Shown: one piece after another, positions 45,063-45,745 of the stretch
How positions within the stretch are numbered: the first letter of the stretch is position 1
How the letters are laid out: every line of letters begins with the position of its first letter
Origin: Alphaproteobacteria bacterium
GTDB taxonomy: Bacteria > Pseudomonadota > Alphaproteobacteria > CAJXXZ01 > 1604HC
Length of the DNA: 64,000 nt
Direction of reading: 5' to 3'
NCBI GenBank assembly: GCA_023898705.1
Contig: CP060235.1
Span: 235,701-299,700 of the forward strand
Notes under the pieces: generated by a model
What the model saw: the letters and a program-made list of their open reading frames with translations, nothing else
Database searches by the model: none
Told to the model about the DNA's origin: nothing
Program-made: the position numbers and the translations under genes

Positions 45063-45551
45063 CTAAGAGTTCTTTTTAAAACATCTACGTTTATTTTTAC
45101 TTCGTGATTCAACATCATCAGTTGCACTCTTTAGTAGCGCTACAACATCCGCATGCCCTCTTTCTGATGCCCACATTAGTGCTGTTTCGCCACACTTATC
45201 CTGTAAATCAACATTTGCATTGTATTCAAGAAGTTTTTCTACAACATCCGCATGCCCATTTTTTGATGCCCTCATTAGTGCTGTTTTGCCATCCTTATTC
45301 TGTAAATCAACATTTGCATTTTGAGCAAGAAGTTTGTCCACAACATCCACATCCCTTTTTATTGATGCACACATTAGTGCTGTAAAGCCATCCTTAGCCT
45401 GTAAATCAACATTTGCATTGCATTTAACAAGAACCTCAATAGCTTTGACATGCCCACCTTGAGAAGCAATCACCAATGGAGCGTCCCCAGGCTCACAACT
45501 TAAATTACTTATCAAGAGGAAACCTAATATACTTATTCTAAAATCCTTCAT
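45063..45551 (-). CDS. Ankyrin-repeat protein (paralog A1) with N-terminal hydrophobic leader and basic Cys-containing tail
   Basis: Four ANK units (DGxTALMxASxxGHxDVVxKLLxxNANVDLQ). Leader MKDFRISILGFLLISNLSC and tail SRSKNKRRCFKKNS. The start is taken at the internal M of the 169-aa ORF. Confidence 0.9.
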   Translation of the reverse strand: MKDFRISILGFLLISNLSCEPGDAPLVIASQGGHVKAIEVLVKCNANVDLQAKDGFTALMCASIKRDVDVVDKLLAQNANVDLQNKDGKTALMRASKNGHADVVEKLLEYNANVDLQDKCGETALMWASERGHADVVALLKSATDDVESRSKNKRRCFKKNS

Positions 45552-45595
45552 GCTTATATTATAACATGTCAATAAATAATTAAAATATGACTAGC

Positions 45596-45745
45596 TTACA
45601 ATATAGTTTTAACATTGTTAAACTTATGAGATTTCTTTAGTAGCGCTACAATATCATTATGCCCATTTTCTGATGCCCACATTAGTGCTGTTTTGCCATA
45701 CTGATTCTTTAAATAAATGTGGTAAAGTAACAAATGAAGGCATAA
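45596..45745 (-). pseudogene. Relic 3' fragment of an ankyrin-repeat gene
   Basis: The minus-strand frame reads ...LKNQYGKTALMWASENGHNDIVALLKKSHKFNNVKTIL*. About 80 nt are clearly similar at the DNA level to 45125-45205 of paralog A1. There is no upstream ORF or start. Confidence 0.6.

Follow-up and report, generated by a model that had tools for sequence, protein, structure and literature searches.

In the stretch of 64,000 nucleotides analyzed here (further called the window), which stems from a genome-reduced alphaproteobacterial metagenome-assembled genome (MAG) of 558 kb, the plus-strand array of ribosomal genes running from rpsL to rplP is interrupted between rplP and rpmC by an antisense ankyrin gene, ank45, and by the relic of a paralogue. 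The array ends with the rplP stop codon at 44932 and restarts with rpmC at 46002, leaving 1,069 nt that hold two minus-strand open reading frames (ORFs). The last gene ahead of the interruption is rplP, encoding L16 (44519–44932, plus strand; Pfam Ribosomal_L16, 4.8e-40; identical to GenBank USO00444.1). It is separated by a spacer of 130 nt (44933–45062) from the convergent ank45 gene (45063–45551, minus strand), behind which the relic ORF is located (45596–45733, minus strand). The first gene past the interruption is rpmC, encoding L29 (46002–46172, plus strand; Pfam Ribosomal_L29, 2.2e-8; identical to USO00447.1), and it is followed by rpsQ (46165–46398, plus strand). Because of this insert, the window lacks the unbroken gene order from rpsJ to rpsQ that marks an S10 operon of the E. 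coli type. An initial annotation of the locus had described an antisense ankyrin gene and a paralogue relic between rplP and rpmC, and both its coordinates and its description are accurate.

The ank45 gene is an intact ankyrin gene of the group called type A below. It starts with ATG (alternatively with TTG at 45572) and encodes 162 aa, consisting of a signal-like head MKDFRISILGFLLISNLSC, four ankyrin (ANK) repeats and a basic tail SKNKRRCFKKNS. Membership of the ankyrin-repeat family is clear from Pfam, with four stretches for Ank (PF00023, 3.3e-29; 99.7 bits at a cut-off of 21.1) and 102.5 bits for Ank_2 (PF12796, 1.9e-29). At the DNA level the gene has a periodicity of 99 nt. A single-sequence AlphaFold2 (AF2) model places paired ANK helices at residues 35–150 (predicted local distance difference test, pLDDT, about 70–88; predicted template-modelling score, pTM, 0.59); as confidence is moderate only, and low in the head and tail, the model informs on the ANK core alone. 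The leader of the gene (45552–45572, minus strand) has an extended −10-like box, TGtTATAAT (45566–45558), that ends 6 nt ahead of the ATG, and is without a Shine–Dalgarno site. This box may function as a promoter.

The relic ORF starts with TTG and encodes 45 aa, comprising a single terminal ANK repeat and a diverged tail. Its Ank_2 score of 28.6 bits (2.1e-6) lies above the gathering threshold of 27.3. In GenBank it is entered as USO00446.1, 'hypothetical protein H6845_01295', and it was the only one to be matched when exact look-ups in the protein collection were made, as ank45, ank50, ank51 and ank56 gave no match there with several start codons. The GC content (guanine plus cytosine) of the relic is 0.30, vs. 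0.38 for the intact ankyrin copies. The initial annotation had noted about 80 nt of similar DNA shared with the intact gene, and proposed to compare the relic with all ankyrin paralogues. Indeed, positions 45634–45717 align by blastn with the final repeat of ank45 (45128–45211) at 85.7% over 84 nt (E 5e-23), and with repeats of the other paralogues at 73–83% identity; the margin of the best match is modest, given that the repeats within ank45 are 74–84% alike among themselves. Upstream of the relic, 14 nt identical to the ank45 leader are found at 45759–45772 on the minus strand, with no start codon after them (repeat family D4). This sequence, TTATAATATAAGCA, occurs at 45759–45772 and 45551–45564, the only two exact copies within the 64 kb. 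The relic thus holds a copy of the 5′ leader as well as the terminal repeat; therefore the middle of a tandem paralogue has been lost, and the relic is the remnant of an internally deleted tandem type-A paralogue rather than a 3′ fragment alone.

A number of other elements were looked for in the region. No Rfam family was found in the rplP–rpmC gap, and no hidden ankyrin remnant 3′ of the ank45 stop codon (44933–45062), where an apparent tblastn extension is alignment overhang. RNA folding of both spacers gave no stable structure and neither of them folds better than its shuffles (z-score −0.04 for the 130-nt spacer). A terminator scan returned no terminator-like site on either strand of 44400–46300, with 0 sites in the spacer behind rplP. 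No transposase or integrase ORFs are present in 44933–46001, terminal repeats are absent, and, the ankyrin repeats and leader copy aside, short repeats are at chance level. When the three ankyrin sites in the window are compared, their non-coding flanks have nothing in common except the leaders. A mobile element (insertion sequence, transposon or integrative cassette) was rejected as an explanation on these grounds, i.e., the lack of a transposase or integrase, of terminal repeats and of common flanks.

Ribosomal proteins place the uncultured host in the Cytomitobacter clade of the Holosporaceae. The L16, S3, L29 and S17 proteins of the window are identical to those of the GenBank MAG 'Alphaproteobacteria bacterium'. 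By L16, the nearest named relative is Candidatus (Ca.) Cytomitobacter primus (68% identity). This member of the Holosporaceae lives as an endosymbiont in diplonemids and has a genome of 622 kb (10.1101/719211, PMC11909080). From Bax1-I, trmD and rplS through rplQ, the window and C. primus have their genes in the same order. In a neighbour-joining tree built from 12 ribosomal proteins, with 1,630 ungapped columns, the window pairs with relative L087 (bootstrap 92.5), and C. primus (L086) groups with the pair of L088 and L089 (87 and 95.5 for the outer and inner group, respectively). A metagenome scan with a profile of the S17 proteins of the clade detected no relative above 50% identity.

Comparison of the junction in other genomes indicates that the ankyrin genes are insertions relative to the ancestral state, as the initial annotation had supposed: rplP lies beside rpmC in L087 and in all distant genomes. 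The gap between both genes measures 0–60 nt in 76 of the 76 unrelated genomes in which both were detected, a baseline of loci retrieved with an L16 query (about 55% identical, mostly betaproteobacterial) and used for adjacency only. Likewise, in 21 more loci, none of them from the affected genomes, S17 starts 223–340 nt past the end of L16, vs. 1,233 nt in the window. No interruption of rplP|rpmC was found outside the clade in the unrelated genomes and loci compared, about 95 genomes there being contiguous.

Within the clade the picture is more varied. L087 is contiguous both at rplP|rpmC (124-nt spacer) and at rpsE|rplO (46-nt spacer). L090 (Nesciobacter/Ignotibacter) has an 85-nt spacer at the former junction and is contiguous at the latter. 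In L089, the rplP–rpmC spacer is 106 nt, and the rpsE–rplO junction holds a 254-aa ORF and an antisense histidine kinase gene. In L088, the rplP–rpmC gap is enlarged, rpmC is degenerate and the cluster is broken after rpsE. In C. primus (CP043316.1), rpsE and rplO are contiguous, and rplP and rpmC are 1.8 kb apart; this interval (10412–12234 of L086) contains about 1 kb of AT-rich non-coding DNA and a co-oriented GyrI-like/Cass2 gene. No ankyrin sequence was found in any of the relatives' loci (L086–L090). The event is thus not unique to this genome. As evidence against its reading, the initial annotation had named the same interruption with other content, if common in close relatives and unrelated alphaproteobacteria. 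The synteny comparison that it suggested partly yields such evidence, as C. primus has a GyrI-like gene within 1.8 kb free of ankyrin at the same junction, and L088 has an enlarged gap with a degenerate rpmC. Because L087 is the sister of the window in the tree and is contiguous at both junctions, the insertions of the window are placed after the split from L087. The same phylogeny suggests that the insertion of C. primus at rplP|rpmC is an independent event. As to the second junction, L089 is invaded at 13684–17149 and L088 is broken at 14572–16313, both being relatives of about 620 kb; the L089 kinase is a hybrid one, and a similar 540-aa hybrid kinase is encoded at 58981–60603 of the window, past the ankyrin genes.

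Promoter-like blocks are located 5′ of rpmC and rplO, the genes that follow the two affected junctions. The 40–50 nt 5′ of rpmC align in all six genomes of the clade, whether they have an insert or not, whereas the remaining spacer does not align. The block (45962–46001, plus strand) reads TAGACT (45965–45970), 17 nt, TAGATT (45988–45993) in the window, with TATAGT (45983–45988) as an alternative −10 element. Across the genomes it follows the motif T[AG]GA[CT][TA], 17 nt, TA[GAC][AC][AT]T, with a conserved T[AG]TAGTA. Over 50 nt it has 11 invariant columns, compared to 3.0 on average and 7 at most among 200 shuffles, and to 2 in the next 50 nt upstream. The block 5′ of rplO (52099–52135, plus strand) consists of CTTTGTATTTTT (52099–52110) and an extended −10 element, TGcTATCTT (52120–52128), ending 7 nt ahead of the ATG. 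In five clade genomes it is found as CTTTGTAATTTT followed by TGnTATCTT, again ending 7 nt ahead of the ATG, with 14 invariant columns vs. 5.4 on average and 9 at most among 200 shuffles. Neither block can be coding, as an in-frame start is lacking upstream and the indels have lengths not divisible by three. A Shine–Dalgarno-like motif is present in 24 of the 30 genes of the cluster, and absent at rpmC, at rplO and at trmD, with which the cluster begins. Many first genes in the window likewise lack a Shine–Dalgarno motif and have a −10-like box some 6–12 nt from the ATG. This suggests that leaderless mRNAs may be widespread among the first genes in the window. From these elements we infer that rpmC and rplO begin transcription units of their own in this clade, possibly with leaderless or near-leaderless mRNAs. 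The unit boundary appears to be older than the insertion, because the block is conserved in relatives without an insert. The claim that transcription must restart as a consequence of the insertion is not borne out for the same reason.

Besides ank45 and its relic, the window contains other members of the family. A tblastn search with the ankyrin proteins returned only three sites in the 64 kb, i.e., rplP|rpmC, rpsE|rplO and the region 3′ of rplQ; the ribosomal cluster that holds ank45 thus has two more ankyrin sites. The rpsE|rplO gap holds two minus-strand genes in tandem. One of these is ank50 (50195–50974; type A, 259 aa; Pfam Ank 1.2e-53, and alignment of head and tail), the other is ank51 (51028–52002; type B; Pfam Ank_2 8.8e-92), which likely starts with ATG at 51936 or 51984 (about 302–324 aa). 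This gap (50195–52002) is also the usual place of rpmD, and neither rpmD nor a remnant of it was seen in the window, including the rpsE–ank50 spacer. After rplQ, ank56/57 (56933–57822, plus strand; type A; Pfam Ank 1.4e-34) carries a −1 frameshift near 57385–57415, at a site that reads ATTTGG and has no long homopolymer. It is followed by the type-B gene ank58 (57848–58801, plus strand), identified by tblastn and translation, which encodes hydrophobic C-terminal segments. An enrichment of ankyrin sites in the ribosomal cluster was considered and dropped, as it is not significant in a single window and may be a sampling effect.

The type-A set (ank45, ank50 and ank56/57) has a common head, M.NFKTSILSLIL.N.LNC..GDTPL, and a common tail, ..NDTD.QSKNKRRC.EK. 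The leader of about 37 nt is homologous in ank45, ank50 and ank56, with a TGnTATAAT-like box 5–6 nt ahead of the ATG. Repeat number varies, from 4 in ank45 and 7 in ank50 to about 8 in ank56/57. Type-B genes (ank51 and ank58) have their own leader and head, distinct from those of type A, and their head likewise ends in NLNC. Overall the type-A paralogues are only about 45–50% identical, yet head, tail and leader are conserved. In a homology search, the head and tail of ank45 had no homologues outside the source genome; only generic ANK matches were obtained, with at most 46% identity over the repeats. The GC content at third codon positions (GC3) of ank45 is 0.26, like that of the host genes. 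Because of this host-like GC3, the ankyrin genes are regarded as long-time residents and not as recent imports, and recent horizontal transfer was rejected as their origin.

The ank45 head (MKDFR / ISILGFLLI / SNLSC) resembles a Sec signal peptide, in which a basic n-region precedes a hydrophobic core of 7–15 residues and a polar c-region, as judged by eye, and is conserved among the paralogues; the tail is basic (KNKRRCFKK). An invariant cysteine closes the head in all five paralogues (SNLSC, NDLNC, NNLNC, SNLNC and SNLNC). These motifs do not agree with the lipobox [LVI][ASTVI][GAS]C, as position −3 is N or D, and all but one of the five paralogues have N at position −1. The ankyrin protein is probably exported by Sec and may act at the cell envelope or on the host, in which case ank45 would be a candidate effector gene. 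As to other secretion systems, a basic C-terminal signal directs Rickettsiales-type Ank effectors to VirB/D4 systems; within the 64 kb, no gene for type IV secretion was detected. Genes of a type VI secretion system (T6SS) are located at 10494–15907 and 20075–20452 (DotU/TssL, IcmF/TssM, ImpA/TssA and a gp25-like TssE), with bamA, secG and an AcrB-type pump nearby. T6SS genes have been described for the Ca. Cytomitobacter group as well.

The outer junctions of the insert are supported by a separate short-read assembly (Logan, SRR12358675). One of its contigs (L081) corresponds to 43940–45224, with 1 mismatch in 1,285 nt, and covers rpsC, rplP and the 3′ end of ank45. Another one (L084) is 100% identical to 45734–47101 and covers the relic leader through rpmC to rplX. 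Positions 45225–45733 are supported by the window alone, as the short-read contigs break inside the ankyrin repeats. In two contigs from the WANG18 metagenomes SAMN08389260 and SAMN08389189 of the European Nucleotide Archive (L082 and L083), rplP is 98% identical to that of the window and divergence begins straight after its stop codon. From about 18 nt past this stop, an antisense ANK loop motif (..ANIDLQ) is found (443–513 in L082, 427–502 in L083); the antisense ANK frame extends into the 3′ end of rplP, a truncated arrangement unlike that of the window. Taken together, the relic, the frameshifted ank56/57 and the variant junction of L082 and L083 show ongoing duplication, deletion and decay of ankyrin sequences. 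Repeat-mediated recombination is possible, as recA is present. The initial annotation had seen in the relic a sign of repeated insertion or turnover at this site. Of these, turnover is upheld by the internally deleted tandem copy and by the differing L082 and L083; repeated insertion is superfluous, as tandem duplication and deletion suffice. The sister sequencing run (SRR12358676) contains a second Cytomitobacter-like organism (L091; L16 68% identical), the contig of which stops 53 nt past rplP.

Some further features of the window were observed. An alphaproteobacterial two-piece (permuted) transfer-messenger RNA is located at 23453–23847 (162 bits), beside a tRNA gene and sspB, and supports an alphaproteobacterial host. 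L2 has 403 aa, compared to 274–284 aa in relatives, owing to an N-terminal extension of about 125 aa (42018–42400) that is basic, rich in Ser, Asn, Gln and Arg, and contains internal repeats. The S10 ORF (39961–40425) and EF-G (719 aa) also seem longer than those of relatives.

The explanation favored here, to which a probability of about 0.6 is assigned, is that the rplP|rpmC gap is a pre-existing transcription-unit boundary that was filled by members of a lineage-specific ankyrin family, other lineages having received other cargo. Most likely, the ribosomal super-cluster of this clade was already split into transcription units at rplP|rpmC and rpsE|rplO. DNA inserted past the end of one unit, yet ahead of the next promoter, would disturb nothing, so that such boundaries would tolerate inserts; this is the proposed reason for their repeated and independent invasion by unrelated cargo. 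The ankyrin cassettes each comprise a short leader with an extended −10-like box beside the start, a signal-like head ending in a conserved cysteine, ANK repeats in varying number and a basic, cysteine-containing tail. At this junction the cassette sits antisense, between the 3′ end of rplP and the promoter-like element of rpmC. The different lineages would have filled their boundaries independently: the window received ankyrin genes, C. primus a GyrI-like gene, and L089 an ORF and a histidine kinase gene, whereas in L088 the cluster separated completely. The ankyrin content would then be turned over by tandem duplication, by internal deletion and by rearrangement at the strain level.

Several points weigh against this explanation. 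The promoter function of the conserved blocks is itself deduced from sequence, and they could instead be regulatory elements of a different kind. They score only 8/12 against the E. coli consensus and are missed by a consensus scan, in which promoter-like sites in the region are no commoner than in shuffles. The tree was built by neighbour joining on fast-evolving lineages with six ingroup taxa only, and the ankyrin census covers 64 kb of the 558-kb genome, where three sites among roughly 65 junctions are not significant. As to the protein, the signal peptide was recognized by eye, its N-L-[NS]-C motif departs from the canonical lipobox, and head and tail had no homologues outside the source genome. 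Finally, no terminator follows rplP, which makes read-through across the antisense gene possible.

This last point leads to the strongest of the alternatives, an unlikely one all the same, in which there is no separate unit. Transcription would read through from rplP over the antisense ankyrin gene into rpmC, the blocks would be signals for translation or RNA processing, and convergent transcription of ank45 would interfere with that of the ribosomal operon or be tuned by it. Besides the lack of terminator-like sites on both strands, the absence of stable structure in both spacers agrees with this. However, rpmC without its Shine–Dalgarno motif resembles the first genes of other units that have a −10-like box near the ATG, and the hexamer spacing of the conserved blocks is typical of promoters. 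Moreover, read-through and an internal promoter can coexist.

Somewhat less probable still is the view taken from the initial annotation, that an intact S10 operon was disrupted by the gene of a host-targeting effector, so that rpmC and the genes downstream of it had to acquire a promoter. In its favor, 1 kb of antisense DNA was inserted, and in more distant relatives rplP and rpmC abut or overlap, pointing to co-transcription deeper in the ancestry. Nevertheless, a promoter-like block and a spacer of 85–124 nt exist in the uninterrupted L087, L089 and L090, and unrelated cargo occupies the same junction in C. primus. About equally doubtful, or slightly more so, is the idea that the ankyrin sequences are decaying junk in a tolerant spacer, with ank45 functionless and on its way to becoming a relic. 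Its neighbor is a relic indeed, ank56/57 is frameshifted, and related strains hold a truncated fragment fused beside rplP. The ank45 ORF, by contrast, is intact with four regular repeats, and its head, tail and leader appear to be under selection because they are conserved while the paralogues have diverged to about 45–50% identity.

A more far-reaching proposal, considered improbable, holds that rplP|rpmC and rpsE|rplO are preferred docking sites for host-interaction cassettes, each a leaderless promoter with its gene, that are moved by recombination, and that antisense placement couples their expression inversely to ribosomal transcription. If true, this would provide effectors with a simple growth-state switch in a genome poor in regulators. 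An assembly artefact, i.e., ankyrin repeats collapsed or misjoined into the ribosomal cluster, is scarcely credible: the short-read contigs do stop in the ankyrin repeats (at 45224 and from 45734), but both outer junctions were recovered by a separate assembly at 99.9–100% identity, two further metagenomes have antisense ankyrin sequence directly past rplP, and the accession numbering in GenBank implies two coding sequences between L16 and L29.

The case is real and, under the favored explanation of a filled boundary, would be fairly ordinary, with accessory genes in a permissive gap that join two known kinds of event, ankyrin expansion and invasion of an operon cluster. Few bacterial gene arrangements are as stable as the S10–spc–alpha cluster, and a clade with repeated hits at the same two internal junctions is a natural experiment on cluster cohesion. 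The data suggest a rule in which a junction loses its protection, and gathers accessory genes, once an internal promoter and a spacer have arisen. The ankyrin family itself would provide candidate exported host-interaction proteins in barely studied protist endosymbionts.

A search of the literature for ankyrin in combination with the S10 operon gave no result. The pattern in the window fits 'invasion-separation', a published mode of breaking the ribosomal protein operon cluster (PMC8046335). In both, few unrelated genes are inserted without a signature of long-distance horizontal gene transfer, and the sister lineage L088 splits fully after rpsE. The insertions analyzed in that study were mostly between operons (PMC8046335), whereas both junctions described here lie inside the S10 and spc units of the E. 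coli type. In addition, the same two junctions were struck repeatedly in one small clade, with no transposable element seen. A further parallel is Ca. C. primus (CP043316.1), which has an insert at the same junction, in the same syntenic backbone and 5′ of the same conserved block. Its cargo differs, being a co-oriented GyrI-like/Cass2 gene with about 1 kb of AT-rich DNA and no ankyrin.

Expanded ankyrin families are known from obligate intracellular bacteria, examples being the ANK genes of Wolbachia, AnkA of Anaplasma, the Ank effectors of Legionella and Coxiella, and RARP-1 and RARP-2 of Rickettsia. The family in the window differs from these in that sequence kinship is limited to the ANK repeat (the best outside match being 46%, over repeats only), and in that the head ...NL[NS]C and the tail ...SKNKRRC.EK are found in the source genome only. 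In other respects it is alike: in a reduced endosymbiont genome, it comprises several paralogues that differ in repeat number, includes tandem copies and pseudogenes, and varies between strains. The putative N-terminal signal of the ank45 protein, recognized by eye, is moreover reminiscent of the Sec-type signal that RARP-1 of Rickettsia combines with its ANK repeats.

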